Shown: positions 4,299 to 59,665 of the stretch, one piece after another
Position numbering within the stretch: the first letter of the stretch is position 1
How the letters are laid out: each line of letters starts with the position of its first letter
DNA from: Candidatus Woesearchaeota archaeon
Lineage (GTDB): Archaea; Nanobdellota; Nanobdellia; Woesearchaeales; JACPBV01
Length of the DNA: 64,000 bases
Assembly: GCA_016180135.1 (NCBI GenBank)
Contig: JACPBV010000005.1
Location: forward strand, 802-64,801
Reading direction: 5' to 3'
Position numbers and translations under genes: made by a program
The notes under the pieces: model-generated
Seen by the model: the letters and a program-made list of their open reading frames with translations, nothing else
Databases searched by the model: none
Told to the model about the DNA's origin: nothing

Positions 4299-4308
4299 CT
4301 ATTCCAGC

Positions 4309-4486
4309 TGAGTATGGATTAAGCTCCGGCAAGAGCGGCTCTGCCATCCTCAGGTCAAAACTCAACTGTCTAACTGAATCACGCTCGTCGTGGGGGGATG
4401 CCCCCTCGGGGACACAGAGCCCTTGCAAAATCAATCAAGAGTTTTGAAGATGGCAGAGCCGCTCCGAGGGGAGCTTAATCCATACT
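4309..4486. mobile_element. MITE-like palindromic element E1, flanked by a direct repeat
   Basis: Arms 'agtatggattaagctcc..gagcggctctgccatc..tcaaaactc' and 'gagttttga..gatggcagagccgctc..ggagcttaatccatact' pair over about 40 bp. 'ctattccagc' occurs at both 4299-4308 and 4485-4494. Confidence 0.55.
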
Positions 4487-6842: not shown

Positions 6843-7030
6843 CGAAAAAACCAGCCATAGCAAAAGCACGGCAACAACATCGGCGAGGCGAGGGCGGGGG
6901 CCGCCCTCCGTCCGCAGACCGGAACGCTATCTTAACCCCTCGGGGTGCCCGAGCAGGGCAAAATTTCCATAGGGGAAATTTTGACCGTCGAGCCCTGTGT
7001 TGTTGTTGCCATCCTTCGAAAAGGTTTTCC
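6843..7030 (+). repeat. palindromic structured repeat element E2
   Basis: The core at 6870-7010 runs 'ggcaacaacatcggcgaggcgaggg...cccgagcagggc[hairpin]gaccgtcgagccctgtgttgttgttgcc' and is shared with E4a and E5. Confidence 0.55.
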
Positions 7031-8698: not shown

Positions 8699-8721
8699 GG
8701 GCACCTCTTTTAATCGCTTGG

Positions 8722-8730
8722 AATATATAT
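8722..8730 (-). promoter_or_regulatory. archaeal TATA box candidate for the 7118-8698 gene
   Basis: ATATATATT on the minus strand lies 24 nt upstream of ATG 8698. Confidence 0.4.
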
Positions 8731-8800
8731 TCAAGTGCTTTCTTTATTAATTTTGCTGCAGAACACTCTGCAAAACACCAGGTGGAAGCAAAAAGTATCC

Positions 8801-20459: not shown

Positions 20460-20525
20460 CCGGTATGTCCTAAGGTTATGCCCGGTATGTCCTAAGGTTA
20501 TGCCCGGTATGTCCTAAGGTTATGA
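20460..20525 (+). repeat. tandem repeat, 3 x 22 nt
   Basis: 'ccggtatgtcctaaggttatgc' repeats perfectly with a 22-nt period, starting 7 nt after the stop of the 17448 gene. Confidence 0.85.
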
Positions 20526-22187: not shown

Positions 22188-22222
22188 ATGGCAGAGCCGC
22201 TCCGAGGGGAGCTTAATTCATA
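22188..22222 (+). repeat. solo copy of the right arm of element E1
   Basis: 'atggcagagccgctccgaggggagcttaattcata' matches 4450-4484 at 34 of 35 positions. I saw no matching left arm nearby. Confidence 0.6.
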
Positions 22223-22238
22223 CGAGAAAAAGAAAAGC

Positions 22239-29600: not shown

Positions 29601-29949
29601 AATAAAGGAGTGCAATGACCAGTTCTGGTATGCAACATGCAAATATATCATTGGCGAGGTATTTTCATTTTTCCCGCCGTTCGCGTTTTTTTTCAGATAT
29701 GTAGGATACATCACAGAGGCATTGAGCGACCCCATAACGGCAGTATTCACCTTGTTAAACATCTTTTTCCAGCCATGCCAGGTTGAGTGCAAGCCAGATA
29801 AAGGTGGTTCTGTTGGATGGGTGCAATGGAGTTGGTTTTGCGGGAGCCTTCAGGTAGCAACCTACATCGGTGAGATTATCAACGACGTCCAGGGAATTAT
29901 TGATACTTTCAAAGATGAAAAGATAGATTACTGCGAGAGGATTGATTGA
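26665..29949 (+). CDS. giant secreted surface protein B (Ig-like repeats, Cys-rich C-terminal region)
   Basis: A 1094-aa ORF with signal peptide 'ALFLITLVLTLPFYSSLAYA'. It aligns with the 10288 protein. Confidence 0.8.
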   Translation: MTAKNKTAQALFLITLVLTLPFYSSLAYASLSSPSVKGADGFPGFVRGNEQFQINVTAFIAPNEVITPNQLSTVDVNGPPFDSCLDIGSGNFQCIKAFDASTLSQNPFTLNIKLFRDGGSQESNLLVNGIIDQLPPIINTFAITPQKTSSGNISLQWSVTDVSHSPAALTQCTGIKKVEFSSSERGVFRSIPLNSFPVCGRSRTESIPVSLITGSDGNISVTLRVFDGVNLQSAQESTFVFDTTPPSIVVDSLKIVDNAGNDLSFLTNISALSSIKFKINANDLNVSSVSADISSLSTDPPADFRKKPVGCIRSAFDEFNCSIAGIPVSISQSLNAQIIVNASDALGNKQTAQLAKQLNFDNLGPVVASITTDFRNAADGRSFAGKKTNFFVTLAEGGVGVDKNDVRLDLSSVNSALASASPDECVSSGNEITCVFANITPTASDGVRPIRVLSSSRDRLGNPVSGALEENITIDTTLPKIEKFSAKALATGTSTTFPPFLKTGDAFAFEVNVTEKNDFTIKADFSNIVTTMQEPVAGQCSVAAVISGLAGLGGNVSVCAWNTNPIDVQGPINSNILINVTDAAGNSKIGFANFTVLQFDDAEVVNHWTSRVECSPSLVDRQITPLINAKVYCQVRLQPLSNDQEVLDIKLNPSQCESVAKDSLDFVDPEGFELTNGNRGATEPFVSFRLAKGEMEIDRLEFRCPLEIITRAGQTINKNPEVEEVTLQAGFYNNPLGQFGDEVKKEIKDAKDIANNIGFKIVGYLKEIVKYATMICNLIATVEKLWWAIHSFTKGMTTAHLAAVGPAEVALGQYAYQGCVQDQFIQKYNENLYTGFSSFCKYVNCQYSPASPQDPSKGGQITSEKTKMGKIHDFFNSWQTKGNNFFGKISPATETTTTISLLGTNLIGRKGTDSKFRDCKTIEECSGKQPSQYMNARDNLGVALMTGCIPGIINGLDNIRQLFCLKADCLQDNARNNVPIKECNDQFWYATCKYIIGEVFSFFPPFAFFFRYVGYITEALSDPITAVFTLLNIFFQPCQVECKPDKGGSVGWVQWSWFCGSLQVATYIGEIINDVQGIIDTFKDEKIDYCERID

Positions 29950-30988
29950 AATGGTTAAATCAGCCAAATCAGTAAAGCTCCCAGGAATCGCAGCAGTGTC
30001 AGCAGGGATTCTCAACGAAATAAAAGGAATTATCTCGAATGCCCGCCATCGGGCGTTCAATGCATTGAACCGGGAAATGCTTACTGCTTATTTCGAAGTT
30101 GGCAGGAAGATATTTGAAGAAGAGCAGAAAGGGGAGAAAAGAGCAGGGTATGGTGAAAAGCTTATTGAAAACTTGTCTGTGGAATTGATTAAAGAGTTTG
30201 GAAAAGGATTTAGTATAACTGCTTTGAAGAATATGAGGATGTTCTTTACTGTTTATAAAGATAAGATTGGTCAGCCAGTGACTGACGAATTCTTCAGGCT
30301 GTCATGGACCCATTATTGTGAACTAATCAAGATTAAAGATGAGATAAAGAGGGGATATTTTGAAAAATACGCCATATCTGAAAACTTAAGCGTAAGGGCC
30401 TTAAAAAGGCAGATGTATTCTCTCCATTATGAAAGGCTGTTGATGAGTAAAGATAAAAAAGCTTTGATAAAGTATGAAAAAAGAGGGAATATCCCTGCAA
30501 CAACAGAGGAGCTTATCAAAGACCCTTATGTCCTTGAATTTCTTGATCTAGGCGAGAAAAAAGCTTATACTGAAAAAGATATTGAGGCCAGGATATTGGA
30601 TGACTTGCAAAAGTTTTTGCTGGAACTGGGGCAGGGATTCAGTTTTGTTGCGAGGCAAAAGAGGTTTACCATTGACAACGATCATTTTTACATTGATTTG
30701 CTTTTTTATAATATTTATTTAAAATGCTATGTGGTGATTGAGTTAAAAGTCGGCAAATTTAGGCATGAGGATGCAGGGCAGATGAACTTTTACCTAAATT
30801 ATGTCAAAGAAGAGTTGAATAAAGAAAAGGATAATGATCCTGTCGGCATAATACTATGCACTGAAAAAGACAAAGTGCAGGTAGAATTTGCATTATCCGG
30901 CATCTCCAATAAGCTCTACGTTTCAAAATATAAATTATACCTTCCGAGCAGGGAAGAATTAGAGAAGGAAATAAAGAGGCTGCTTTAA
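29942..30988 (+). CDS. DUF1016 / YhcG-family PDDEXK nuclease domain protein, copy 1
   Basis: Contains 'IDLLFYNIYLKCYVVIELKVGKFRHEDAGQMNFYLNYV', the typical YhcG core. It overlaps the stop of the upstream giant gene by 8 nt. Confidence 0.8.
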   Translation: MIEMVKSAKSVKLPGIAAVSAGILNEIKGIISNARHRAFNALNREMLTAYFEVGRKIFEEEQKGEKRAGYGEKLIENLSVELIKEFGKGFSITALKNMRMFFTVYKDKIGQPVTDEFFRLSWTHYCELIKIKDEIKRGYFEKYAISENLSVRALKRQMYSLHYERLLMSKDKKALIKYEKRGNIPATTEELIKDPYVLEFLDLGEKKAYTEKDIEARILDDLQKFLLELGQGFSFVARQKRFTIDNDHFYIDLLFYNIYLKCYVVIELKVGKFRHEDAGQMNFYLNYVKEELNKEKDNDPVGIILCTEKDKVQVEFALSGISNKLYVSKYKLYLPSREELEKEIKRLL

Positions 30989-31037
30989 CATGCCCCGCCG
31001 CACAAAAGGCCACAGGCATACCCCAGGCATGCAGAAC

Positions 31038-31220
31038 ATGAAAACAAACAAATCAGCCAGGATTTCAGGAATCGTAATATTGTTTGCAGTTATAAGCCTG
31101 TTTGTGTTTGCCTTCTTCACAGCCCAGCTCCCGGAAGGCATGAAGCCGCTGGTTGAGGTCAGCATGAACGGTCCTGAGTCGGTGACGGGAGCGGCGGTTG
31201 GGGTGACGGGGATAAAATGA
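31038..31220 (+). pseudogene. 5' fragment copy of the 32536 surface gene (signal-anchor segment only), or a small expressed membrane peptide
   Basis: 'MKTNKSARISGIVILFAVISLFVFAFFTAQLPEGMKPLVEVSMNGPESVTGAAVGVTG' parallels residues 1-69 of the 32536 protein. It ends in an ATGA overlap with the next gene. Confidence 0.5.
31050..31212 (+). repeat. direct repeat copy 1 of the 5' coding segment of gene D
   Basis: Aligns with 32557-32719 without gaps, at about 88 percent identity by eye. Confidence 0.8.
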
Positions 31221-32539
31221 ATAAAAAGACATTCAAAGAAACAGAACTCCTGGAATTAAAAAAATCAACCTCTGAGTTAAAGGAAGCTATAATCTCCATG
31301 GCCTCTATCTTAAACAAGCATCAGAAAGGAGAAATCTACTTTGGCATAAAGAATAACGGCGAAATTGCAGGCCAGGATATCTCAGGAAAAACAATAAGAG
31401 AAGTGTCTAAATCTGTTTCGGATAATATTGAGCCTAAAATTTATCCTAAAATCAAAGATGTCTTAATTGATGGCAGGAAATGCGTGCATGTTGAATTTAA
31501 TGGCAATGATATCCCTTACTATGCATTCGGGAGGGCCTACATGAGAGTGGGTGATGAGGACAAGAAAGTAAGCGCCAAAGAATTGGAGAAAATGATTGTA
31601 GAAAAAAATAAAGATGAGTTAGCATGGGACAAAGCAGTATGCAAAGGCGCAAAAACAAGTGATATAAGCCTGCAAAAACTGAAAGTATTCCTCAAACAGG
31701 CAGCCTTGAAATTTGATTCCGCAGAAAATTCGCTTAAGAAGCTTAACCTGATAAAGGGCAGCAGCCTTATCAATTCGGCGCTGATACTATTCGCAAAAAA
31801 TCCTGAGAAATTTTTCCCAAATGCAAAATTGCGATGTGCCGTTTTTGGCACAGACGATGCCTCTTTTATCATTGATATGCAGGAATTTGAAGGTGATTTG
31901 TTCTATCTGATTGAAAAGGCGCAGGAGTACATACTTAAAAATATACACATAGGTATGAGGATTGATGGATTGTACAGGGTTGATGTTCCGGAGATAGACA
32001 AAGAAGCATTTAGGGAGGCAATAGTTAACGCTTTTTGCCATAGGGATTACCACAACTATGACTCCGTAAATATTGCAATATTCAGGGGCAGGATGGAGAT
32101 AAGGAGCCCGGGGTTATTGTATGGGGGGCTTACCATAGAAAAGATCATATCAGGAGCCGTTTCTGAGAGGCGGAATGAAATAATCGCAGAAATGTTTCAT
32201 AAAGTCCATTTTGTCGAAAAGTGGGGAAGGGGGATTAATTTGATTCTTTCCAAGGAGCCGGATGCTGATTTTAAGGAATCAGGCAGGCATTTCGTTGTAG
32301 TTTTCAAGAGGAAAGAAAAAAGCTACGAAGTGAAAAGTTCGGAGAAGAGTTCGGAGAAAAGTTCGGTGAAGATTTTAGAGTTGATAAGGGAAAATCAGAG
32401 TATAACCGTCCGGGAAATTGCAAAAGAATTGAACATAACTGCAAGGGCAGTGGAAAAGAGCATCTCAAAATTAAAGCTAAAAGGCTTGCTTAAAAGAATC
32501 GGCCCGGACAAAGGGGGGCGCTGGGAGATCATCAAATGA
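31217..32539 (+). CDS. COG2865-type protein (AlbA_2/Schlafen-like DNA-binding domain + HATPase_c_4-like domain + winged HTH)
   Basis: Contains 'ETELLELKKS', 'GEIYFGIKNNGEIAG', 'NAFCHRDY', 'EIRSPGLL' and 'VEKWGRGINLI'. The C-terminal HTH is 'SITVREIAKELNITARAVEKSISKLK'. Confidence 0.8.
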   Translation: MNKKTFKETELLELKKSTSELKEAIISMASILNKHQKGEIYFGIKNNGEIAGQDISGKTIREVSKSVSDNIEPKIYPKIKDVLIDGRKCVHVEFNGNDIPYYAFGRAYMRVGDEDKKVSAKELEKMIVEKNKDELAWDKAVCKGAKTSDISLQKLKVFLKQAALKFDSAENSLKKLNLIKGSSLINSALILFAKNPEKFFPNAKLRCAVFGTDDASFIIDMQEFEGDLFYLIEKAQEYILKNIHIGMRIDGLYRVDVPEIDKEAFREAIVNAFCHRDYHNYDSVNIAIFRGRMEIRSPGLLYGGLTIEKIISGAVSERRNEIIAEMFHKVHFVEKWGRGINLILSKEPDADFKESGRHFVVVFKRKEKSYEVKSSEKSSEKSSVKILELIRENQSITVREIAKELNITARAVEKSISKLKLKGLLKRIGPDKGGRWEIIK

Positions 32540-35500
32540 AAAAGCTCAACAATTTCAAATCAGCAAAGATGTCAGGAATCGCAATAGTGTTTGCAGTGAT
32601 AAGCCTGTTTGTGTTTGCCTTCTTTACCGCACAGCTCCCGGAAGGGATGAAGCCGCTGGTTAAGGTTAGCATGAACGGGCCTGAGTCAGTGACTGGGGCA
32701 GTGGTTGGAGTCACGGGGATGGCAGTAGAAACTTATACTCTTCCTACAAAAGAGGGGGTGGGTAAAAGTAAAGATATTGCACCTGGCAAGTATTACATTG
32801 AAAGCAAAGGCAGTATAGGTGAAACCAAACCTGCTCAGGTTCTCTTTGATTATACAGGCACCTTAACCCCCGGCACCTACACAGTTGTGCAGCGAAGCTC
32901 GGATGGAAGGGAATTTACAGCAAAAGATATTAAAGTTGAAGATGGAAATAAAATCACCGTTATTAGGACAGGTAGAGGAGATTGGGTAGAGGGGGGAGAT
33001 GGGTCATCAACATACAAATCGAGCACTATAATGCTCGATAAGAAGGGTAAAGTAACAACAGATCCGGTTTTAATGGTTAGCCTTCTCCAAATCCCGGAAA
33101 GTATAGGGCCAAAAACAAACAAAGAGATAACAGAAAATAATCCCCAAATATTAACCTCAAAAGAAGATTTTTCCAGCCGCAATGCGGTTTATTTTAAAGA
33201 TGATGGCAATAAAATAGATGCCCCCACTAATAGTGGGACAAGTAAGGGTACTTATTACGGAACCAGCATATTCAAGTTTGATGGGCAAGATTACTATGTG
33301 ACAACAAAATATGAGGATGGTGAGGATAACAACAAAGCAGTGAGATATATTAGCGAAAACCCCCCTTCTCCAGCAACTGGATGGGGAACAGAGATAAAAG
33401 GATATGATGCCAAGACAGGCATCGGTAGATTAGATTCCAATGTTGGCAGTTTGAAAAAAGGGAAAGTTGATGTTTCTTGGCGGGGCTTTGACAACGGTGT
33501 GCCAACTAAATTTTCAAATATAAATTCCAACACAATGCAGTCTAACAATAATGGATTATACCTTAGTAGTAAGGAAGGCAGCCTATGGAGCGCAAATCAG
33601 CCATCAAATCCAGAATCGGGGGATATTTCTTACGGAACTTCCATTTATACTAAAGATGGACAAGAGTATTATGTTACTCAGAAGTATAAGTATGTAGTTA
33701 GTGGAAAAAGTGAAAGTTGGGAAGCCGTCAAAGATGAGGTTTACCTTGCAAAAACACCTCCAAACAATAAGGATGAAATAGAAAAAGGCGCGAGAGGAAC
33801 AATCGAAGGCAACAATATCAAGATTACCGCCGCAGGTGAAGGATTAAAGGTTGGTGATGACTTTGATGTAAGGCCTCAAAATTCTAAATATGGTGCAACA
33901 GAAAAAGAGGAAGATGCTCTTAGGCGTGAGTTTAAAGGTACTAATGAGGAATTTGCAGCGATGCTATCTTCCCTCGAAAGTTCGACTGCAATAGGCGCAA
34001 CATCAACTTCTTCCGCCGCATCAAGTTCTGCAGGGACCAAAGAAGTAAGAAGACCAATCTTCTTCAGGGGAAAATGGTTTGTTTTTGACTTTTCAGGTAA
34101 AAAGCCCATAGAGTTTCCTGATGACGAGGAAGCCAAAAATTATGCCGCAAAGATTAACAAAGCTATAGAACGAGGACTTAAACCCTCAGAATTCACCTCC
34201 GATAAAGAGGGAAAAAATGATTTATTTGCAAGTTCTTCAGGAACGCTTCTTTCTTACGACGACTCGAAAAAAGATTTCTCTAATCCCCCCGCTGGTACGG
34301 AATTTTGGAAAAAGGAAACACTTGGGGCAAACCTCGAGGTAAACGTAAGGCACGCCAATGTTGGCGGCGCACCATCTGGCGAAATTTATGGCGCCATTGG
34401 TAAGTTTAATATTGATATTCCAGCGCTCCAAAGCATCAAAAAGAACGTTAAACCGGGAACTACCGTTACCTTTGATAAAAATACAAAAACTTTTTCATTC
34501 ATTAATCCAAAAGAACAATCTGTGCAGGAAATATTTTCTGCCAGTTATAATGTTGAACCTGATACTGCCCACCCCAATACGCCGCCAAAAGTTACAGGAA
34601 CTAGGACTCAAACAACCACAGTAGATTATTACTTTGACCAATATGGGAGCCAAATAACCCGTGCAGCACATATCAAATTGGCCTATGAAGGTAATCCTGG
34701 CCAGGAAATTAAAGTGCCCGAATCAAACATTTTTTCGAGGAACGAAATATTCAAGGGAATTACGGTTTTAAACAATCTAGATATTAAACAGCAACGGACT
34801 GAGTTTGTTTTTACTCCCGAAAGTGATGGAACGCAAACCATCTCTGGATTCAAAACAACGTCATTTGCGTATGACTCCAATAAGGGAACTTTAGCAGGAA
34901 TAGTGCTTTCTACAGGGGAATTAAATAATCAAGTTCAGGAAACGGTGGTTTATGATATGGAAAAAGGAACTGTTACGAAAACAAAGGAACGGGGTATTGA
35001 ATCTGTCTATCTTGTGCCTACGCCTACCGAGGATATTAATAGTCTTAATGGTCTCGAAGAAGAAGCTGCACGGGTCGGCAACCGTGAGCACAACCGTAAA
35101 GCTTTTGCAGATTGGGAACTTAAGCTCACCCAATACCGGGGCTTATCTGGGTTTTCTCAGCTTTTCTTCGATGATGAAACTCTTGCAAAATGGCGTGAAA
35201 ATGTAGATAAATACTTTGCCAAATATTTAGGCCAAGACTATTTTGAATCTTATATCTGCTCACTCGCAATAGACAAAGAATCCGGACCTGGCACACTCTC
35301 GATGGAAACCCCAAATGGATTATATGACATCATCGCCCACATCGAAGGCACAAGGTCAGAGCCAATAAATCGCCCAGACGGCACAACAGAATTCGTCTAC
35401 AAATTCACCTACAATATCAGGAATCCAGAAGGCTCGCCCCATAAGAACTTATTATTCAACATTGCGCTCTACAGCGCTCAGGGAAAGAGATACCTTTACC

Positions 35501-35799
35501 CAAGATCCCTCGCTGTAAAAGAAGGGAAGCATTTCATCAGGGGCTTAGTCCTTAATGAAGCCAATGCAGACAAAGACTTTGAAAGAGGCCCTGTCGTCAA
35601 AGTCTCCCAAAACTTATACGGAAAGCTCTGCATCGAATTCGGCCAAACAATAACCAACGCTGAAGGGGACGAAGAATCGCAGGTCTGCAACACTATTACT
35701 GCATTTACCGGAACAGGAACTGAGTTTGAGGAGCGCACATCGGAAGAAGCCAAGCAAACACCTCAGGGCCCGAAGGACTTCAGCGAGGGGGAGATATGA
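32536..35799 (+). CDS. large membrane-anchored surface protein D
   Basis: A 1087-aa ORF with an N-terminal signal anchor. It has repeated 'YGTSI(F/Y)..DGQ(D/E)YYVT' segments. Its C-terminal region, with 'YFESYICSL', is related to the other giant proteins. Confidence 0.8.
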   Translation: MKKLNNFKSAKMSGIAIVFAVISLFVFAFFTAQLPEGMKPLVKVSMNGPESVTGAVVGVTGMAVETYTLPTKEGVGKSKDIAPGKYYIESKGSIGETKPAQVLFDYTGTLTPGTYTVVQRSSDGREFTAKDIKVEDGNKITVIRTGRGDWVEGGDGSSTYKSSTIMLDKKGKVTTDPVLMVSLLQIPESIGPKTNKEITENNPQILTSKEDFSSRNAVYFKDDGNKIDAPTNSGTSKGTYYGTSIFKFDGQDYYVTTKYEDGEDNNKAVRYISENPPSPATGWGTEIKGYDAKTGIGRLDSNVGSLKKGKVDVSWRGFDNGVPTKFSNINSNTMQSNNNGLYLSSKEGSLWSANQPSNPESGDISYGTSIYTKDGQEYYVTQKYKYVVSGKSESWEAVKDEVYLAKTPPNNKDEIEKGARGTIEGNNIKITAAGEGLKVGDDFDVRPQNSKYGATEKEEDALRREFKGTNEEFAAMLSSLESSTAIGATSTSSAASSSAGTKEVRRPIFFRGKWFVFDFSGKKPIEFPDDEEAKNYAAKINKAIERGLKPSEFTSDKEGKNDLFASSSGTLLSYDDSKKDFSNPPAGTEFWKKETLGANLEVNVRHANVGGAPSGEIYGAIGKFNIDIPALQSIKKNVKPGTTVTFDKNTKTFSFINPKEQSVQEIFSASYNVEPDTAHPNTPPKVTGTRTQTTTVDYYFDQYGSQITRAAHIKLAYEGNPGQEIKVPESNIFSRNEIFKGITVLNNLDIKQQRTEFVFTPESDGTQTISGFKTTSFAYDSNKGTLAGIVLSTGELNNQVQETVVYDMEKGTVTKTKERGIESVYLVPTPTEDINSLNGLEEEAARVGNREHNRKAFADWELKLTQYRGLSGFSQLFFDDETLAKWRENVDKYFAKYLGQDYFESYICSLAIDKESGPGTLSMETPNGLYDIIAHIEGTRSEPINRPDGTTEFVYKFTYNIRNPEGSPHKNLLFNIALYSAQGKRYLYPRSLAVKEGKHFIRGLVLNEANADKDFERGPVVKVSQNLYGKLCIEFGQTITNAEGDEESQVCNTITAFTGTGTEFEERTSEEAKQTPQGPKDFSEGEI
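32557..32719 (+). repeat. direct repeat copy 2 (inside intact gene D)
   Basis: Aligns with 31050-31212. Confidence 0.8.
35329..35799 (+). repeat. direct repeat copy 1 of the 3' coding segment of gene D
   Basis: Aligns with 36906-37469, except for the 93-nt insertion in copy 2. Confidence 0.85.
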
Positions 35800-36794
35800 A
35801 AAAAGAGATTGAAAGCCAACGAAGTGAATTAATTAATAAAATCTCAGAAATTGTCAAGAGAGCCAAAGATGAATTAGCTAAAACGATAAATACAAAGATG
35901 GTCGCTGCTTATTGGGCCATCGGCAGATATATTGTTGAGCATGAGCAAACGGGCAAAGAAAGAGCTGAATATGGCTCTGAACTTATGAGTGCCTTATCGA
36001 AAGAGCTTTCCTTAAGGTTTGGAAGAGGATTTTCCCGTTCAAATCTTCAGAATATGCGGCTTTTGTATTTGGCATATCCAAAAAGCCAGACACTGTCTGG
36101 CAAATTGAGCTGGAGCCATTATTGCCTGTTGATTTCTCTTGAAGAAAGGGCAAAAAGAGATTTTTATGAAAAAGAAACCCTGCAAAACAATTACTCATTC
36201 AGGGAGCTCAAAAGGCAGATAAGCTCAGCATTATATGAGCGGCTGGCATTGAGCAGGGATAAACATGGGGTTTTGCAGCTGTCCAAAAAAGGCAATGTTA
36301 TCACGAGTGCTGAAGATATGATAAAAGATCCATACGTGCTTGAATTTCTAGGGCTGCCGGAGTCTGAGAAGCTTTCTGAAAAGGGGTTAGAGGGATCTAT
36401 AATAAAGCACTTAAGGGATTTTCTCCTTGAGCTTGGCAGAGGATTTGGCTTTTTTGGCAGGCAGTATCGGATCACCATGAACAATGAGCACCATTATGTC
36501 GACCTCGTGTTCTACCATGTTGAATTAAAGTGCTTCGTATTAATTGACTTGAAAGTGAGAGAATTCAGGCATGAAGACGCCGGGCAGATGAATTTCTACC
36601 TCAATTATTTTAGGAATGAGGTAAACAGCAGGGATGATAACCAGCCAATCGGAATCATTTTATGCCTTGAAAAGAATAAAGTTTATGTTGATTATGTATT
36701 GGGCGGATTAAGCAATAAAATATTCGCATCCAAATACCAGCTGAAGCTGCCGACACCAAAAGAGCTTGCAGAAGAGGTCAAAAAGGAAATGTAG
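35796..36794 (+). CDS. DUF1016 / YhcG-family PDDEXK nuclease domain protein, copy 2
   Basis: Contains 'VDLVFYHVELKCFVLIDLKVREFRHEDAGQMNFYLNYF'. By eye it is roughly 45 percent identical to copy 1. An ATGA overlap links it to the stop of gene D. Confidence 0.8.
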   Translation: MKKEIESQRSELINKISEIVKRAKDELAKTINTKMVAAYWAIGRYIVEHEQTGKERAEYGSELMSALSKELSLRFGRGFSRSNLQNMRLLYLAYPKSQTLSGKLSWSHYCLLISLEERAKRDFYEKETLQNNYSFRELKRQISSALYERLALSRDKHGVLQLSKKGNVITSAEDMIKDPYVLEFLGLPESEKLSEKGLEGSIIKHLRDFLLELGRGFGFFGRQYRITMNNEHHYVDLVFYHVELKCFVLIDLKVREFRHEDAGQMNFYLNYFRNEVNSRDDNQPIGIILCLEKNKVYVDYVLGGLSNKIFASKYQLKLPTPKELAEEVKKEM

Positions 36795-36905
36795 TATACC
36801 CGATAACCAAGAAAAATCAATTAATAGATTAATGGAAAAAAAATGCGCCATAAAACACTGAAGTCGGGACAAAAAACCATGGCAACCCACAACACTCCCT
36901 TCCCC

Positions 36906-37469
36906 ATCATCGCCCACATCGAAGGCACGCGCTCAGAGCCAATAAGACGCCCCGACGGAACCACCGAATTCGTTTACAAATTCACCTACAATATCAGGAA
37001 TCCGGAAGGCTCGCCTCATAAGGACTTATTATTCAACATTGCGCTCTACAGCGCTCAGGGAAAGAGATATAGCAAAAGACGCAAATATTCAGATAATAAT
37101 GCCCGTCTTTTGCTTATTAATAACGGACAACTATGGTTAAATAATTATTGTCCGTTATTATACCTCTACCCAAGATCCCTCGGTGTAAAAGAAGGGAAGC
37201 ATTTCATCAGGGGATTAGTCCTTAATGAAGCCAATGCAGACAAAGACTTTGAAAGAGGCCCTGTCGTCAAAGTTTCCCAAAACTTATACAGCAAGCTCTG
37301 CATCGAATTCGGCCAAACAATAACCAACGCTGAGGGAGACGAAGAATCGCAGGTCTGCAACACTATTACTGCATTTACCGGAACAGGAACCGAGTTTGAA
37401 GAGCGCACATCGGAAGAAGCCAAGCAAACACCCCAGGGCCCGAAGGACTTAAACGAGGGGGAGATTTAG
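36906..37469 (+). repeat. direct repeat copy 2 (orphan)
   Basis: Aligns with 35329-35799. Confidence 0.85.
37070..37162 (+). other. 93-nt in-frame insertion made of two hairpins
   Basis: Absent from copy 1. It contains 'gcaaaagacg...cgtcttttgc' and 'taataacggacaa...ttgtccgttatta', and 'ata' occurs at both junctions. Confidence 0.55.
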
Positions 37470-37470
37470 G

Positions 37471-37959
37471 ATGGAAGTCAAAAAGGCCGGAGAGAAATCC
37501 AAGAGAAAAATCCTTATTGACTTGGACGTGATAACCGTCGCCTTGTGGAACAAGAAAAAAGAGATTGTTTCATTTATTGAAAGGGTAAAAGAAGGTGAAT
37601 TTGAGGTTTACACCCCCTATAGCCTCATGGATTTGGTTGAGCAATGGAGAGATGCAAGATTAAGAAACAATATCAAAGAGTTCTATGCCCTTTACTCAAC
37701 GGAGATTGTTTCGCTCCAGCGCTTGAAGAATCTCATTGAAGAGAGAGCTATCAATGAAACCGCTTTAATTGAGGTTTTAAAAACAAAGGAGATTAAGGAA
37801 GAAGATATTCTTTTGGTTGTCGTTACCGCCCTGATGAATCTCGATTTCTTAGTAACCCTTAACAGGAAGCACTTAAAAAACAAGGAGGAGGTCATAAATG
37901 CCATACTATCCAATCATGGGCTTAAAAAAGTTAAGATTATCTCGCCAGAAGAGGTTTAG
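37471..37959 (+). CDS. PIN-like domain protein (weak)
   Basis: 'ILIDLDVITVAL' near the N-terminus and 'LDFLVTLNRKHL' near the C-terminus resemble PIN acidic blocks. The start lies 1 nt after the upstream stop. Confidence 0.45.
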   Translation: MEVKKAGEKSKRKILIDLDVITVALWNKKKEIVSFIERVKEGEFEVYTPYSLMDLVEQWRDARLRNNIKEFYALYSTEIVSLQRLKNLIEERAINETALIEVLKTKEIKEEDILLVVVTALMNLDFLVTLNRKHLKNKEEVINAILSNHGLKKVKIISPEEV

Positions 37960-38393: not shown

Positions 38394-39212
38394 ATGAAAC
38401 CGATCAAAACAATAAAAAGAAAAAGCTCCTGGGGTGAAGCTCTCGGAGAATATTTCCGGGATCACGGAAAAGCCGCTTTCAAAGCAGCAAAAGCCTCGAT
38501 GAACACCCGCACCCTGATGGCGGCAGGATACGCCGCAATATTATTCTCAGCCACGCTCCTTGCATTCTTTTTTGCGAAGCTTGCCCTGGTTCCAAAACTG
38601 GAAGCGCTTGACTCGATCAGCCTTGACCGCATCCAGGAAAAGGCAGAGGGTGAATTGGCGGAGATTGCCGGAATAGCGAAAGGATTCATCGCAGCCCTTA
38701 TAGCAGTCGTTATAGCAGCATCAGCGCTCTGGGCTCTGCTCTTTGGCCTAATCGAGGGAAGCCTCATCAGAGGATTTACCGGCTCGGATGTTCCCCTGAA
38801 AAGATATGCCCTCCTTGGGCTTGTTTGGGCCCCCGCCTGGCTGGCCATATTCTTCCTCCTCATTTTTGGGGGCAGGTCGGAAACACTCCTCACAGGATTG
38901 ATCATGCTGGCGCTGGCCTTCATCCACTTCAGCACGACAGTCTTTTGCCGCTTTTCGGCAACGAACAGGTTAAGGGCAATAAGGGAAGGCCTTGCCGAAG
39001 GAATAAGGCTTCACCATTATCTCCTGCCCTACATTTCCCTATACTTTATATACCGCCTCGGCAAATATCTCTTTGATTGGGCATTAATCCTGAGCAAAGC
39101 TCAGCCAGGGATTGTCCTGCTTGGGACCGGAATGGTTTTGATGCTGCTGTTCATCGGATTTGCGCAGGCATTCCAGATCAACACTCTCCTGCAGGCCAAA
39201 CAAGCCAGATAG
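38394..39212 (+). CDS. polytopic membrane protein, paralog of 16646 and 58865
   Basis: It has five or more hydrophobic helices and the shared 'LRAIREGLAEGIRLHHYL' block. It lies directly upstream of the prepilin-like gene of module C. Confidence 0.6.
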   Translation: MKPIKTIKRKSSWGEALGEYFRDHGKAAFKAAKASMNTRTLMAAGYAAILFSATLLAFFFAKLALVPKLEALDSISLDRIQEKAEGELAEIAGIAKGFIAALIAVVIAASALWALLFGLIEGSLIRGFTGSDVPLKRYALLGLVWAPAWLAIFFLLIFGGRSETLLTGLIMLALAFIHFSTTVFCRFSATNRLRAIREGLAEGIRLHHYLLPYISLYFIYRLGKYLFDWALILSKAQPGIVLLGTGMVLMLLFIGFAQAFQINTLLQAKQAR

Positions 39213-39345
39213 TCAGGCAAAGAAGCAGAATAGGGAAAGTTGGGACCAATCAAGCCCCTCAGGCCAAACAAGGTTGGCAAACAGGCAAACAAGCGGAATA
39301 GGGAAAGTTGGGACCAATCAAGCCCCTCAGGCCAAACAAGCCTGA
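39192..39345 (+). repeat. tandem repeat with a 68-nt period (about 2.3 units), including two perfect 45-nt copies
   Basis: 'gaatagggaaagttgggaccaatcaagcccctcaggccaaacaag' occurs at 39228-39272 and 39296-39340. 'caggccaaacaag' also occurs at 39192, inside the end of the upstream gene. Confidence 0.8.
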
Positions 39346-39397
39346 CAAGCAGGACAGATAGGTTATTGGCAGGAAACATTGCCCGGAAACATCTACC

Positions 39398-41500: not shown

Positions 41501-41680
41501 GCCTGGAGATGCAATAAGTCAGAAGATAGGATAGGAGATATGGGAAGTTAGGAGATAAAAAGTATAGGAAAAAAAATAAAGCAGTATTGAAACGGCTAAT
41601 AGAGGTTATGCGCAAAGTAATCAGTTGCAGGAGTTAGGAAAAACCAATCAAGAAAGAGCAGCTGAAATAATCTGCAAAAG

Positions 41681-41796
41681 AAAATCCCAACAACAAAGGG
41701 CTCGACGGTCAAAATTCCTTTCAGGAATTTTGCCCTGCTCGGGGGTTTCCGAAGGAACAACCCTCCCCCTCGCCTCGCCGATGTTGTTGGGATTTT
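41681..41796 (-). repeat. palindromic structured repeat element E4a (inverted relative to E2/E5)
   Basis: Closing stem is 'aaaatcccaacaaca'/'tgttgttgggatttt'. The interior is near-identical to E5 apart from compensatory stem changes. Confidence 0.6.
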
Positions 41797-41816
41797 CGAG
41801 GGAGAGGATGTTCATC

Positions 41817-41931
41817 GAAAAAATCCAGCCATGGCGGAGACGGGACGGGGGTCGCCCCCTCGGGGTGTCTCGTAGGGCATTTTGCCAAAAGCAAAATGAC
41901 CGTCTCCCGCCTTGGCTGGCTGGATTTTTTC
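41817..41931 (+). repeat. palindromic structured repeat element E4b (divergent member)
   Basis: The 15-bp closing stem is 'gaaaaaatccagcca'/'tggctggattttttc', with a second stem 'ggcggagacgg'/'ccgtctcccgcc'. It shares 'gccccctcggggtg' and 'gggc[hairpin]tgaccgtc' with the other copies. Confidence 0.55.
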
Positions 41932-54166: not shown

Positions 54167-57100
54167 TCATCCCCCGATTATTTTTGAACTGTTAACCAAG
54201 TTCAAGTTTCTTTCAAGAAACCCAAACTCTTGTTTGTTAAGAAGTTTTATTATTAAATCTTTTGAACTATCTTTATCTTCAATACCCTTGTGTGTTGCAA
54301 AAACTTTTAACAAGGTTTTATTTGCATTAACTTGGTCATAAATTTGGATTGCATCTATCTTTGTAACAATTCCATCACTTCCTTCCAAACCTGACCCAAA
54401 CAATATTGCAAAATTGTCTAATTCAAGATTTTTTCCAGGTTGACCATCTTCCTTGTTTTGGATAAAAGCGAAATAATTACTTAAAAGATTAAAAGAGATA
54501 AAGTTTCCTTCTCCTGTTAAAATTCTTCCGAGTTGACAAGAAATGTCAAAACCACAATCTTGGATAATAGTATCTCTCACTTTTTCAAGAGTTACATGGC
54601 GGACACTTTTATTGTTTAAGTTGGCTAAAGTGTTACTCCCATGATTATCGACTAATTCGGAAAATATCGAGCTCCCATTAAACGCCCCAGGACACCCCAC
54701 CCCCACAAACGTCTCCACTTTGTTGGCATCAAACTCTCCCTTTTCAAGCGACGATAAAACACTCCTGCACCCATTGCTGAACCCAACATACTGCAGCTTT
54801 GATTTATTCGTCGAAGAGATGACTTTGTTCAGCAGGGCAGGAACATACTCATCCGTCAGCGTTGAAAAGTTATAATTCGGGCAGTCATCCGTCTCTTTTC
54901 CTGCGCAGTCCGTATCAGGACCGCCGGTTATCTCGATCAGCCAGGTATCTTTGCCTTCTTCACTTGCCAATTCAACCCCGAAGTCTTTCCACGAATCTAA
55001 ATTGGACCAAAGGCCGTGCCCCAGCACAACCGGCAGCCCCGCCTCATCCCTAAACGCAGTAAAATTCTCAGAATATGCCGGCTTCAAATGCAGCAATCGT
55101 AAATTAACCCCATTCACCGTCGCATTTACCTGATCCTCATCCTGCATGTCGTCCTCAAGCGCCCTCTTCACAAGACTTGCAAAAGCAGTTGAATTCTGCT
55201 TGTAAAACGCCTTATTAAAAGAATTATGAAGAAAATCAAAGACGCCGATAGCAGGCACATACTCCTCGCCGAGAAACATGGCAGCTTCCCTGCTGATGAA
55301 CTTTTCCTTGTTGGCAGCAAACTCCTTTGCGCCGGCGATAAACCCTTCGATGTCATTTGCCTCGATCGCAACCTTCTGCTTCCCGTTCACATTTTTGCTT
55401 CCGACAACTGCGCAATAGGGCTTATTGCAGAACTTGTCCTGGAACCTCAGCCCGCCGCCCTGGAACCCCCATCCATTCTCTTCAAGCGCGCTAAAATGCC
55501 AGACGATCAGAGGATTGTGCCGTGCGACAAGGATCTCCACATCTGCATCGTCAGAAGCAGTTACAAATTCCGCGCCGGGGATGTTCCCCTTCAAAAATTT
55601 AGCAATCTCGATGTCAGCGACATCAGGGGGCACATCGGAGCGTAAATAATACTTAGTCAGGCCGAAAAAAAGCTTTGAGGCAATGTTGTCTATCCTGCCA
55701 ACTTCATTAAGATTATTATCTGGGTCTAGGATAACTGTAATTTCGTGCCCCCTCTCAACATCCCAGCTTGTGGAGAGCTCTCTTGAGCTGTTTGCATAAA
55801 TCCTAAAGCCAAATGTTTCAGTCTTTTCTTTGATGAGCTGGCCGCTGAATTTGTCAATAAATTTAGCTTTCAGGCCGTTCACATCAGACGCTCCATTATT
55901 GGCTGCCTTAAACACTATTGTCAGGTTTCCCCCGGAATTAAAGGTGAGATTGGAGATTGAGATATCATTCAGACATCCAATTTGGCAGGATCCCCCGCAG
56001 TCAATGCTTTCCTCGTTTCCATTCTTCACATTATCAGAACAGCTGCCTTCCCTTTGTAATTTGATAAGGTAAACATTATAGTTTCCCCCCCCGAAAGGGC
56101 CGGAGCTAATATACCCGGCAACAATAAACCCACCGTCGTCGGTTTGATGGGCAGAAGTTCCAACAGAAAAACTGTTGTTGATGCTCCGAAAAGTCTTGTT
56201 CCACTGCAAACTTCCATTGAGAGTCACCTTTACAAGGTAAACATCTTCATTGGTGTTTCCAGCAACGATATACCCTCCATCGCTGGCCTGCAAAACTGAC
56301 CGCCCAGCATCATCAAAATTAACCCCAAACGACTTGTTCCACTGAGTCTTCCCACTAGCATTGACTTTCAGGAGATAAACCTGTTGGCCCGCTGCTTGAC
56401 CCAGTGCGCTGATAGGATAAATCTCCCCCGCAACGATATATCCGCCATCGCTGGTCTGCTTGACAGAGTACCCATAGTCCTCTCTCTCCCCCCCAATCGT
56501 TTTACTCCACTGCAGTTTCCCCGCAGAATCTGTTTTTATTAGGTAAACATCCTTATCTTCACCGGGAATGTATCCAGCAATGATATACCCCCCATCATTG
56601 GTTTGTTGGACTGAGTACCCGGAATCATGGTTTCCTGGGTCTCCAAATGTTCTGTTCCACTGAATCGTACCATCAGAATTAGTCTTTATGAGGTAAGCAT
56701 CTCCACTATACGGGCTAAGGGTGTTATTAACACTCCCCGTGATGATATACCCCCCGTCATTTGTCTGCTGGACAGAGTATCCATAATCATAATTTGATCC
56801 CCCAAAGGTTTTGTTCCACTGCGCTTTTCCGTCAGGATCGGTTTTCAGGAGGTAAACATCAGAGTTTCCTGCGCCGAAAGACGAAGTTCCTCCCGCAACG
56901 ATATATCCGCCATCATTGGTTTGCTGGACAGAGTATCCATAATCATAATTTGATCCCCCGAAGGTTTTGTTCCACTGCATCTTTCCGTCAGGATCGGTTT
57001 TCAGGAGGTAGACATCAAAGTTTCCTGCGCCGAAAGACGAAGTTTCTCCGGCAACGATATACCCTCCATCGCTGGCCTGCTGGACAGAGTACCCATAATC

Positions 57101-57232
57101 ATTTCCTGAGCCTCCGAAGGTTTTGTTCCATTCAGCATCTGGTGATTGCACCTGGATGGAGGCAGAACTCACAACTGCATAGACACCGGAGTTTATCATT
57201 ATCAGAGAAAGAACAAAGATTACCCAGGACAA
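54167..57232 (-). CDS. secreted beta-propeller-repeat protein with a C-terminal alpha/beta-hydrolase (lipase-like) domain
   Basis: It has about seven 52-aa repeats of 'WNKTFGGS..D.GYSVQQT.DGGYI.AG...' after a signal peptide. The hydrolase blocks are 'PVVLGHGLWS' and the nucleophile elbow 'YVGFSNGC'. Confidence 0.8.
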   Translation of the reverse strand: MSWVIFVLSLIMINSGVYAVVSSASIQVQSPDAEWNKTFGGSGNDYGYSVQQASDGGYIVAGETSSFGAGNFDVYLLKTDPDGKMQWNKTFGGSNYDYGYSVQQTNDGGYIVAGGTSSFGAGNSDVYLLKTDPDGKAQWNKTFGGSNYDYGYSVQQTNDGGYIITGSVNNTLSPYSGDAYLIKTNSDGTIQWNRTFGDPGNHDSGYSVQQTNDGGYIIAGYIPGEDKDVYLIKTDSAGKLQWSKTIGGEREDYGYSVKQTSDGGYIVAGEIYPISALGQAAGQQVYLLKVNASGKTQWNKSFGVNFDDAGRSVLQASDGGYIVAGNTNEDVYLVKVTLNGSLQWNKTFRSINNSFSVGTSAHQTDDGGFIVAGYISSGPFGGGNYNVYLIKLQREGSCSDNVKNGNEESIDCGGSCQIGCLNDISISNLTFNSGGNLTIVFKAANNGASDVNGLKAKFIDKFSGQLIKEKTETFGFRIYANSSRELSTSWDVERGHEITVILDPDNNLNEVGRIDNIASKLFFGLTKYYLRSDVPPDVADIEIAKFLKGNIPGAEFVTASDDADVEILVARHNPLIVWHFSALEENGWGFQGGGLRFQDKFCNKPYCAVVGSKNVNGKQKVAIEANDIEGFIAGAKEFAANKEKFISREAAMFLGEEYVPAIGVFDFLHNSFNKAFYKQNSTAFASLVKRALEDDMQDEDQVNATVNGVNLRLLHLKPAYSENFTAFRDEAGLPVVLGHGLWSNLDSWKDFGVELASEEGKDTWLIEITGGPDTDCAGKETDDCPNYNFSTLTDEYVPALLNKVISSTNKSKLQYVGFSNGCRSVLSSLEKGEFDANKVETFVGVGCPGAFNGSSIFSELVDNHGSNTLANLNNKSVRHVTLEKVRDTIIQDCGFDISCQLGRILTGEGNFISFNLLSNYFAFIQNKEDGQPGKNLELDNFAILFGSGLEGSDGIVTKIDAIQIYDQVNANKTLLKVFATHKGIEDKDSSKDLIIKLLNKQEFGFLERNLNLVNSSKIIGG
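56060..57130 (-). repeat. coding tandem repeats with a 156-nt (52-aa) period in the beta-propeller region
   Basis: 'gctggacagagta(t/c)ccataatc' recurs at 56767, 56923 and 57079. The two units following 56767 and 56923 are about 93 percent identical at DNA level by eye. Confidence 0.8.
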
Positions 57233-58610: not shown

Positions 58611-58732
58611 TTGAAAATTTCAACAACGTCGGCGAGGCGAGGGGGAGGGATGGCTCCTACGGAGTCCCCGAGCAGGGCAAAATTTTCACAGAGAAAATTT
58701 TGACCGTCGAGCCCTGTGTTGTTGAAATTTTC
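58611..58732 (+). repeat. palindromic structured repeat element E5
   Basis: A perfect 16-bp closing stem 'tgaaaatttcaacaac'/'gttgttgaaattttca' encloses the conserved core. Confidence 0.6.
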
Positions 58733-58797
58733 AGATGCACTGCCCCAATTAATAAAACTCAGATTTTTCAGATGCGCTTCACCAATTAATAAAACTC
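58727..58797 (+). repeat. tandem duplication, 2 x ~35 nt
   Basis: 'ttttcagatgcactgccccaattaataaaactca' is followed by 'tttttcagatgcgcttcaccaattaataaaactca'. The first unit starts inside the right arm of E5. Confidence 0.75.
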
Positions 58798-58830
58798 ATA
58801 TTCATCCAAAATGCCCCGGTTTGAAACAAC

Positions 58831-58864: not shown

Positions 58865-59665
58865 ATGTTCCTAGTAAAAATCATCAGGCAGTCTTTCCGG
58901 ATCATGCTCGGAAGCAAAAAGAAAACATTTGCCATTCTGGGGCTTCAGCTTCTCTACGGAATCCTCCTTTCAGCCATCATCTTCACCACCCTCATTCCTG
59001 CGACGGAGGAAGCAAGGAAGGCTCTTGACGTCTTTGACAACGCTCAGGAGAATCTTCCCGGCGCCCCGGAAGAAAACGCCCTCCCTTCAGAGCAGGCGTT
59101 GGCCATCTATCAAAGCGCAGCAAGGATGGCATCCTACCTGAAGGATGCCGGAGTTTATTCAGCGGCAGTATTTATGGTGTTTAGCTCCCTGCTCTGGGGA
59201 TTTTCCCTTTCTCTCGCCAACAGGCTCCCGGTGAAAAGGCTGATACAGCCGGCATTCACTATTTTCATCCTTTCGGGAATTGTGATATTCCTGGCAGAAA
59301 CCGTCATTGCAGGATACATGAGATCTGCGTTTAAGCTGATTGACCAGGGCTCATTCACCCCCGTTTTTGCTCTCGCAGGAACTCTCCTCCTGTTTGGCTA
59401 TTTCGGCGCAGTCGCATTCTCCCTTGCCTGCAAAAGGCCAAAAGATTTTTTTCCGGCGTTTATTTCAGCTGCTTTTGGAAAAGCCCACCGCCTCATTCCG
59501 GTCTTCCTGACAAGCTTTCTCTTCATCTCCGCTGCGGCAGCGCTGATAATTTTGACAGCAGAAGCCAACCTTATCATTGCGCTAATCCCTTTTCTGATAT
59601 TGATTGCAGTTCAGGCTGCCGCAAGATTGTTTATGGTCGTTGCAGTGAAAGAAGCAGCAAAATAA
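58865..59665 (+). CDS. polytopic membrane protein, paralog of 16646 and 38394
   Basis: TTTAAATA at 58831-58838 lies 26 nt upstream of the ATG. The topology is similar to the paralogs, and it carries the 'FISAAFGKAHRLIPVF' block. Confidence 0.6.
   Translation: MFLVKIIRQSFRIMLGSKKKTFAILGLQLLYGILLSAIIFTTLIPATEEARKALDVFDNAQENLPGAPEENALPSEQALAIYQSAARMASYLKDAGVYSAAVFMVFSSLLWGFSLSLANRLPVKRLIQPAFTIFILSGIVIFLAETVIAGYMRSAFKLIDQGSFTPVFALAGTLLLFGYFGAVAFSLACKRPKDFFPAFISAAFGKAHRLIPVFLTSFLFISAAAALIILTAEANLIIALIPFLILIAVQAAARLFMVVAVKEAAK

Follow-up and report, generated by a model that had tools for sequence, protein, structure and literature searches.

The intergenic stretch at positions 58613-58732 raised the question of whether a palindromic repeat can be kept for its fold rather than for its letters, and whether such a repeat moves. 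An earlier note on the 64,000-nt piece of a Woesearchaeota contig analysed here (the window) had described it as one of a family of intergenic palindromes in which two internal hairpins change in sequence and stay paired. In the best reading of the data, these elements, here called family 1, are a short non-coding repeat of a Woesearchaeota lineage that resembles a MITE or a REPIN and in which the fold is kept, not the sequence; the evidence for this reading rests on few sequences.

Copies and common fold of family 1

A covariance model (R1), built from five copies (three from the window and two external ones), was run across the whole 64-kb window with filters off and recovered four copies, at 58.5 to 127.7 bits. 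The flagged copy at 58613-58732(+), which is of the CAACAAC type and forms a complete three-way junction, scored 127.7 bits (E = 1.6e-39, positions 58614-58732), and the minimum free energy computed for it as RNA was -49.4 kcal/mol (z = -4.3). An inverted copy at 41680-41797(-), whose fold was also computed, scored 124.4 bits (41680-41796), and the copy at 6846-7030(+), with its core at 6866-7012, scored 111.8 bits (6865-7013). The fourth copy, at 41817-41931(+), is divergent; it was placed by hand alignment and obtained 58.5 bits (E = 1e-16, 41819-41926; z = -6.2). Beyond these four members, R1 gave no score below E = 0.002 in the window. The copies that the earlier note had listed at 6843, 41681, 41817 and 58611 were thus recovered, while its more distant copy at 4309-4486 was not (E about 1) and is described below as a member of a second family.

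All family 1 copies are intergenic and lie between long ORFs. They are 115-190 nt in length, occur in both orientations, are 56-85% identical to one another and have a G+C content of 50-62%, as compared with 46% for the window. The 41817 copy shares 56-65% identity with the others and has the same architecture. It lies head to head with the 41680-41797(-) copy, 19 nt apart, and the two belong to different subtypes. As had been claimed, no conserved ORF spans the elements, the shared frame being open in only two of six copies. The flagged copy is located between divergent genes, upstream of both TATA-like boxes. Starting within its last bases, a unit of about 37 nt (TTTTCAGATGC.C...CCAATTAATAAAACTCA, 58729-58805) is present twice in tandem; the TATA-like box of gene 58865-59665 follows just downstream.

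One structural plan, laid on six distinct copies and verified segment by segment against their sequences, fits all of them. It is a three-way junction closed by a long stem (P1) and carrying an arm (P2) and a perfect hairpin (P3). P1 joins the two ends of the element, which pair over 15-20 bp, and consists of a variable extension, then CAACAAC.../...GTTGTTG, and last GGC[GA]G / C[GA]GCC. In the flagged copy its 5' strand (58613-58636) carries the extension GAAAATTT, CAACAACGTC and GGC[GA]G, with a tandem G.A beside the junction. It pairs with the 3' strand at 58708-58732 (C[GA]GCC, CTGTGTTGTTG, AAATTTTC), as delimited by segmentation and hand alignment. The extension reads GAAAATTT/AAATTTTC in the flagged copy, GAAAATCC/GGATTTTC in the 41680 copy, GAAACC/GGTTTC in another and differently again in others, so the outer stems do differ between copies with their complementarity kept, as previously proposed. 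In the 41817 copy, CAGCCA/TGGCTG stands in place of CAACAAC/GTTGTTG, and both tandem G.A motifs are replaced by Watson-Crick pairs, with junction and plan unchanged. The core sequence quoted in the earlier note describes three copies correctly; the 41817 copy keeps the architecture with a different sequence. The tandem G.A motifs were also considered as a K-turn, which was rejected since they have no 3-nt bulge and are plain tandem G.A within continuous helices. The BHB motif of archaeal splicing is absent from P1.

The P2 arm has the general form GC[GA]GGNN ... NNCC[GA]GC and encloses a G-rich 5' bulge and a C-run/loop/G-run hairpin (hairpin A), so that its tip reads G-run/C-run/G-run. In the flagged copy (58637-58673, helices 3-4) it is composed of GC[GA]GGGG, the bulge GAGGGATGG, hairpin A as CTCC-TAC-GGAG, a spacer T and CCCC[GA]GC. 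In every copy the C-run has two possible partners of similar energy, the upstream and the downstream G-run (the upstream one being GGAG in the flagged copy), and in the two copies in which CCCC has become CUCC or UUCC a matching A is present in both G-runs. Because the C-run pairs equally well with the upstream G-run, hairpin A is one of two alternative pairings; its reported variants (ttcc/ggaa, ctcc/ggag, cccc/gggg) were found as quoted. The junction strand J23, 'AG' (58674-58675, alignment columns 67-68), is invariant in six of six copies and leads into the P3 arm (58676-58705, helix 5), which is formed by GGC, hairpin B (AAAATTTTC / ACAGA / GAAAATTTT) and G(A)CC with an invariant bulged A. 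The equally invariant J31, 'GT' (58706-58707, columns 105-106; GU in RNA), closes back to P1. In the 41680-41797(-) copy, the extension GAAAATCC/GGATTTTC is accompanied by hairpin B as AAAATTCC/GGAATTTT and hairpin A as TTCC/GGAA. Three or four copies have a P1 extension similar to their own hairpin B arm. Folding z-scores ranged from -4.3 to -6.8 against dinucleotide shuffles, on both strands and with both RNA and DNA parameters.

Covariation and strand asymmetry

In an unbiased MAFFT alignment of five copies, RNAalifold detected a compensatory change in 14 of 40 pairs. A hand alignment of six copies contained both-side changes in 22 of 50 pairs (38 cells) and three one-sided changes, and 88.9% of its cells formed standard pairs vs 74.4 +/- 1.6% in shuffles. 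None of 500 shuffles reached the observed pairing or covariation values, with the limits that this alignment was fitted to the structure, that it has six of only 6-7 distinct sequences, four of them from one genome, a depth too low for R-scape to have power, and that related sequences can beat shuffles. When the partners were slid by 1-3 columns, pairing was 37-51% and the covarying pairs numbered at most nine. Within this small sample, the structure-preserving variation that had been proposed was therefore observed in both alignments. It was seen in the P1 extension and inner P1 (helices 1-2 of the hand alignment), in two of the four pairs of hairpin A and in hairpin B, whose 12 pairs were 100% paired and in seven cases changed on both sides. 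The six copies, at 56-85% identity, vary in 44 of the 79 paired columns that are fully occupied; the invariant unpaired bases are the junction AG and GT (GU), the bulged A and four G of the bulge.

The pairs are not symmetrical with respect to strand. The well-supported helices hold five G-U and no A-C, the only two A-C cells being in doubtful outer stems of the L142 (an external copy, see below) and 6843 copies. The tandem G.A motifs become pyrimidine-pyrimidine mismatches if read on the other strand, and the G-rich strand is the more stable one in five of six copies. Taken together, wobble bias, tandem G.A and stability point to one specific strand. This asymmetry fits RNA and single-stranded DNA alike.

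These features would be expected if the copies were genes of a small structured non-coding RNA family with a cellular or defence role, whose paralogs are selected at each locus and whose variable helices are neutral or specificity-determining. Functional RNAs are classically recognised by covarying stems around unpaired junction bases that do not vary, the G-U pairs and tandem G.A are confined to one strand, the G+C content exceeds that of the window, and the two tip hairpins of similar energy found in every copy recall RNA switches. However, the Rfam search that the earlier note had suggested matched no family: nothing reached gathering thresholds over the 64 kb, and at E up to 10 the element attracted only unrelated snoRNA/miRNA noise. 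5S rRNA, Y RNA, ribozymes and IS605-associated motifs were rejected as well, with no Rfam score near the gathering threshold. The Rfam scan of the L160 region, which holds an external copy, gave no match, and the tRNA search of the window gave none either. No promoter-like motif was consistent at a fixed distance upstream, similarities among flanks being at chance level and not exceeding shuffles. Moreover, orientation is unrelated to the neighbours. The G-rich strand is antisense to them in four of the five copies between co-directional genes, and read-through would therefore not yield this RNA. P1 sequences differ inside one genome, about 30 extra nt are tolerated in one copy (6896-6935), the flagged copy has the TATA-like box of a divergent gene on either side, and absence from relatives at 67-89% protein identity would be odd for a housekeeping RNA. 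We regard RNA genes as an unlikely explanation.

Hairpin B deserves separate mention. Its variants were as quoted in the earlier note, and it is perfect in every copy, with 45 bp, no mismatch and no G-U. Such perfection fits DNA-level palindrome homogenisation as well as selection, and would also be found in an ordinary decaying MITE family in which compensation is only apparent, produced by intrastrand template switching in quasi-palindromes or by gene conversion, whether from copy to copy or from arm to arm, in the absence of selection on the fold. That both strands fold almost equally well agrees with such decay. Template switching accounts for simple hairpins, but not for invariant unpaired junction bases, and it leaves unexplained both the one-strand bias of wobble pairs and the replacement of tandem G.A by Watson-Crick pairs in the 41817 copy with the architecture kept. 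We consider a decaying MITE family a poor candidate, and return to it below.

Occurrence, candidate insertion sites and a sister family

Outside the window, pattern scans of genomes, metagenomes and viral contigs gave two family 1 loci only. One (L044/L150) is in another Woesearchaeota MAG (GCA_016188175.1) and scored 112.8 bits with R1; the other is L142 with its orthologous locus L160 in a second assembly (119.3 and 115.2 bits, respectively). The loose two-block pattern used over genome contigs returned mostly chance matches in high-GC genomes, L044 being the only true one, and the strict three-block pattern used over metagenomes returned L142 only. Viral-contig pattern scans contained no true family 1 match, and plasmid and phage BLAST searches contained no match at all to the family. 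The strict family 1 core is rare in public data, and this rarity counts against the reading as a mobile repeat. L142 and L160 are identical over 281 nt but for an 11-13-nt patch in the bulge and the tip of hairpin A (L142:672-684 vs L160:3340-3355), and the Logan contig L161 ends exactly at this patch. The patch could be due to conversion between copies, to population polymorphism or to an assembly chimera; patchy conversion would suit the decaying-MITE explanation.

The element is missing at three orthologous intergenic sites. At the first, between a 538-aa and a 748-aa gene, the window has 386 nt with the element, while the orthologs have 4 nt (L145), 116 nt (L146) and 31 nt (L167) without family 1, and L165 has a family 2 element in its place. 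At the site of the L044 copy, L150 has 451 nt vs 90-118 nt in relatives, the neighbouring protein being 89% identical. The third is the site of the L142 copy, with 244-248 nt in L142/L160 vs 113 nt in L163. The relatives compared have 67-89% protein identity, and the flanks have diverged too far for an empty site to be defined to the base; absence in relatives could also be ordinary turnover of intergenic DNA. One 'empty' intergenic region has a variation of its own, a 28-nt tandem repeat (GCAGGATAGGGAATATGTGCCATACTAT) present in three vs two copies between assemblies (L151:2703-2820 vs L152:981-1070).

The usual footprints of transposition were looked for at the ends of family 1. No direct repeat of at least 6 nt adjoins the ends in any of six copies, no target duplication of 2-10 bp is consistent over the copies, and the flanks have no common motif, the left ones ending in ..GTTT, ..CCTC, ..CATC, ..AACC and ..TCGG. 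Apparent shared flank motifs (TATATTAA, GGTTA.., CAGAT..) and two direct repeats, of 9 nt and 8 nt, around the 6843 and L142 copies did not exceed what shuffled flanks gave, and a TATA-like box at L142 proved to be the promoter of the neighbouring gene. A Pfam search of 40 window ORFs found no transposase, HUH, TnpB or reverse-transcriptase gene, and neither did the precomputed annotation of the external loci; no RAYT/Y1 gene was found in the 64-kb window or those loci. Inverted termini are present, but only GAAAA../..TTTTC is common to the subfamilies.

These termini give either strand a T-run behind a strong stem. Archaea use oligo-T as termination signal, and four of six family 1 copies lie between co-directional genes, as might be expected of a cis-acting host element such as a protein-binding site, a transcription terminator or insulator, or a recombination site of the integron attC type. 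In attC sites one strand is recognised by its structure, the sequence varies and the pairing is kept, and CAACAAC/GTTGTTG loosely recalls the R''/R' boxes. However, a terminator would have no purpose at the flagged copy, whose neighbours are divergent genes, the relatives do without the element at the same sites, and an invariant three-way junction would be superfluous for a terminator. The attC core RYYYAAC/GTTRRRY is unmatched, three positions being violated in each box; unlike attC sites, family 1 has a highly conserved internal sequence and a branched fold, and its copies are scattered in both orientations, with no cassette array and with no integrase found among the window ORFs scanned. 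A host site of any of these kinds appears very improbable.

The 6846-7030 copy has a composite appearance. About 30 extra nt are present in its P2 bulge (6896-6935), and its outer stem is of the 41817 type (GAAAAAACCAGCCATAGC ... GGTTTTCC). Its 5' flank CGAAAAAACCAGCCATAGC and the start of the 41817 copy (5' end) agree at 19 of 20 bases; this is the sole flank similarity above every shuffle and bears out the wider bounds (6843-7030) given in the earlier note. One family 1 copy is thus chimeric or nested. The extra bulge stretch CTCCGTCCGCAGACCGGAACGCT (6902-6928) is found at 26 of 27 positions in L160:5374-5400, on a contig of another organism, and also matches window 27247-27269 at 87% in inverse orientation, inside a 1094-aa ORF. 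A structure signal was looked for in the 27-nt match between this insertion and L160, and none was found. The conserved 538-aa neighbour gene (7118-8734, -) has a weak PADLOC match to Cas6 (E = 4e-4, 18.9 bits), which is probably not meaningful; its orthologs are present in relatives that have no element. For the large unannotated neighbours, PADLOC yielded nothing useful.

The mobility proposed earlier is in agreement with the occurrence of both orientations, the absence at three orthologous sites, the one chimeric or nested copy and the head-to-head pair, and these go together with no target duplication and no transposase. From them we infer that the copies spread by transposition.

The element at 4309-4484, with terminal inverted repeats of about 42 nt, belongs to a different family (family 2). 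It is flanked by a 10-bp direct repeat, CTATTCCAGC (4299-4308 and 4485-4494). When the element is removed together with one repeat, the alignment of the restored site with L145 runs across the stop codon of the 748-aa gene and continues for another 34 nt. This stop codon (gene 4485-6731, -) is the precise point of insertion, and the element end rebuilds TAG. The 748-aa gene hence adjoins two elements. Because the empty site is restored and a 10-bp target duplication is present, 4309-4484 is a classical MITE insertion. With family 1 it shares only a GGGGGG-N3-CCCCC-TC-GGGG module. A relative at L165:1620-1752, the site orthologous to that of the window 6843 copy, has the same interior (CATCCTCAGGTC.AAAC ... 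GGGGGG.CCCC..GGGG ... GAAGATG) with different outer inverted repeats, is flanked by A6 runs and also shares the 9-mer CCGTCGAGC with family 1. A solo right-end fragment at 22188-22223(+) is 97% identical over 36 nt to 4450-4485, and no left arm was found upstream of it. Families 1 and 2 may be distantly related or may exchange modules. That the sister family is demonstrably an insertion favours the reading of family 1 as a mobile repeat, and that it is a classical MITE also suits the decaying-MITE explanation, but family 1 is without the target duplications.

Four family 1 elements, one of family 2 and one fragment in 64 kb correspond to about 90 elements/Mb, the same order as the approximately 105 MITEs per Mb of a Woesearchaeal genome in a published census, in which some DPANN archaea have MITE densities that rank with the highest in archaea and the structure of the elements is not described (PMC11602168). 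Further palindromic intergenic elements, unrelated to these families, were noticed in the same Woesearchaeota lineages (L044:4450-4525; L160:1821-1869 and 5180-5228; L165:1860-1960). One of them is a 76-nt element, AAAACACCCCGCCC...GGGCGTGTTTT, and another family is made of hairpins of about 49 nt (TATAGGCA.GGA...) that are repeated within and between contigs.

Relation to known systems and possible mode of spread

By analogy, REPINs and the bcr1 repeat of the Bacillus cereus group appear to be the closest functional counterparts of family 1. REPINs are likewise short non-coding intergenic repeats found in both orientations, with no target duplication and with common compensatory changes in their hairpin, and the form recognised is believed to be a folded single strand (PMC3116915). 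They consist of two REP units of 20-40 nt that form a simple long hairpin, occur in bacteria, and are mobilised by a RAYT transposase whose gene lies nearby (Bertels & Rainey 2011, PMC3116915). In contrast, family 1 is a three-way junction of 115-190 nt with invariant junction bases in a DPANN archaeal host. Membership among REPINs or REPs was rejected: the unit is the branched junction itself, and the sole inverted pair (41680-41931) is made of two different subtypes. The bcr1 repeat (about 155 bp) is MITE-like, differs in distribution between strains and has a branched, 'cruciform-like' structure kept by compensatory base changes; unlike family 1, which has no direct repeats, it shows 5-bp direct repeats, and it is known to be transcribed (PMC3184786). 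There is no sequence similarity between the two.

Classical MITEs, such as Correia, ERIC, RPE and the Sulfolobus MITEs, resemble family 1 in size, non-coding nature, terminal inverted repeats, intergenic dispersal and high density in a Woesearchaeal genome (PMC11602168). Family 1 is short, non-coding, multi-copy and intergenic as MITEs are, but it has no target-site duplication, and its terminal repeats differ between subfamilies yet remain complementary. A sequence-specific transposase would not tolerate such variation of the termini.

Other mobile or structured elements were also compared. PATEs and the IS200-IS605 group are moved by single-strand HUH transposition, bear one subterminal hairpin per end and integrate 3' of a fixed target of 4-5 nt. 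PATEs share with family 1 the lack of target duplication, a strand-specific folded DNA substrate and a common occurrence in archaea. Membership was rejected, as the ends of family 1 pair with each other over 15-20 bp and its left flanks have no common motif. A retron ncRNA was rejected since the element is multi-copy and the neighbouring ORFs contain no reverse-transcriptase domain, and bridge and omega RNAs were rejected on the features used in these membership tests. Family 1 is a demonstrated member of none of these groups, as it lacks the target duplication of MITEs, the architecture of REPINs, the target rule of IS200/IS605 and the boxes of attC.

We give slightly more than even credence to the reading that family 1 is a non-autonomous mobile repeat, conserved in its strand-specific three-way-junction fold because this fold is what is recognised. 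In such a process, a trans-acting enzyme encoded elsewhere in the genome would recognise the invariant junction and the geometry of the helices, the recognised parts being AG, GU, the bulged A, the GGC/GACC base of P3 and the G-run. Its substrate would be the G-rich strand only, in the form of single-stranded DNA or of a transcript. Copies would be propagated only if they keep the fold, and the stems would thus drift by paired changes. The agent of spread would then presumably be a structure-specific enzyme.

A more far-reaching proposal is that DPANN archaea possess an undescribed mobilisation system guided by structure, with the three-way junction of the G-rich strand as its substrate or cofactor, or that this junction is a new archaeal structured RNA riding on a mobile repeat. 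This we hold to be improbable. Such a system could work by single-strand DNA transposition that dispenses with HUH-type end hairpins, or by an RNA-mediated route. The variable helices would be carriers of specificity, the P1 extension resembling the hairpin B arm, and the G-run/C-run/G-run tip would be a two-state switch.

Structured intergenic mobile repeats are already known, and as far as the literature searched extends, this is their first description for a DPANN archaeon. DPANN archaea have tiny genomes, and family 1 provides a concrete example from them that combines a branched fold, an invariant junction and freely covarying stems with none of the usual transposase footprints. If the fold is mobilised, a structure-specific enzyme is still to be found in these organisms; if it is RNA, it would represent a new archaeal RNA class. 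In groundwater communities, the R1 model can be used to follow such elements and the dynamics of genomes at strain level, although the practical gain will be modest until more copies or expression data are at hand.

Several other features of the window were recorded. The region 29900-37500 is a segmental duplication with direct repeats of 88-96% identity. It carries two YhcG/DUF1016 PDDEXK nuclease genes (29942-30988 and 35796-36794) and a Schlafen AlbA_2 / HATPase_c_4 / HTH gene (31217-32539), and may be a defence or variable island. The ORFs of 700-1300 aa that surround it have no Pfam or PADLOC match. Moreover, a perfect 22-nt tandem repeat in three copies (20460-20525) lies downstream of a 1001-aa ORF, and a 68-nt tandem repeat in two to three copies (39192-39353) covers the end of ORF 38394-39212. 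Finally, the gene at 54167-57232(-) encodes a 1021-aa protein that has internal repeats with a period of about 156 nt and matches the DUF5122 beta-propeller.
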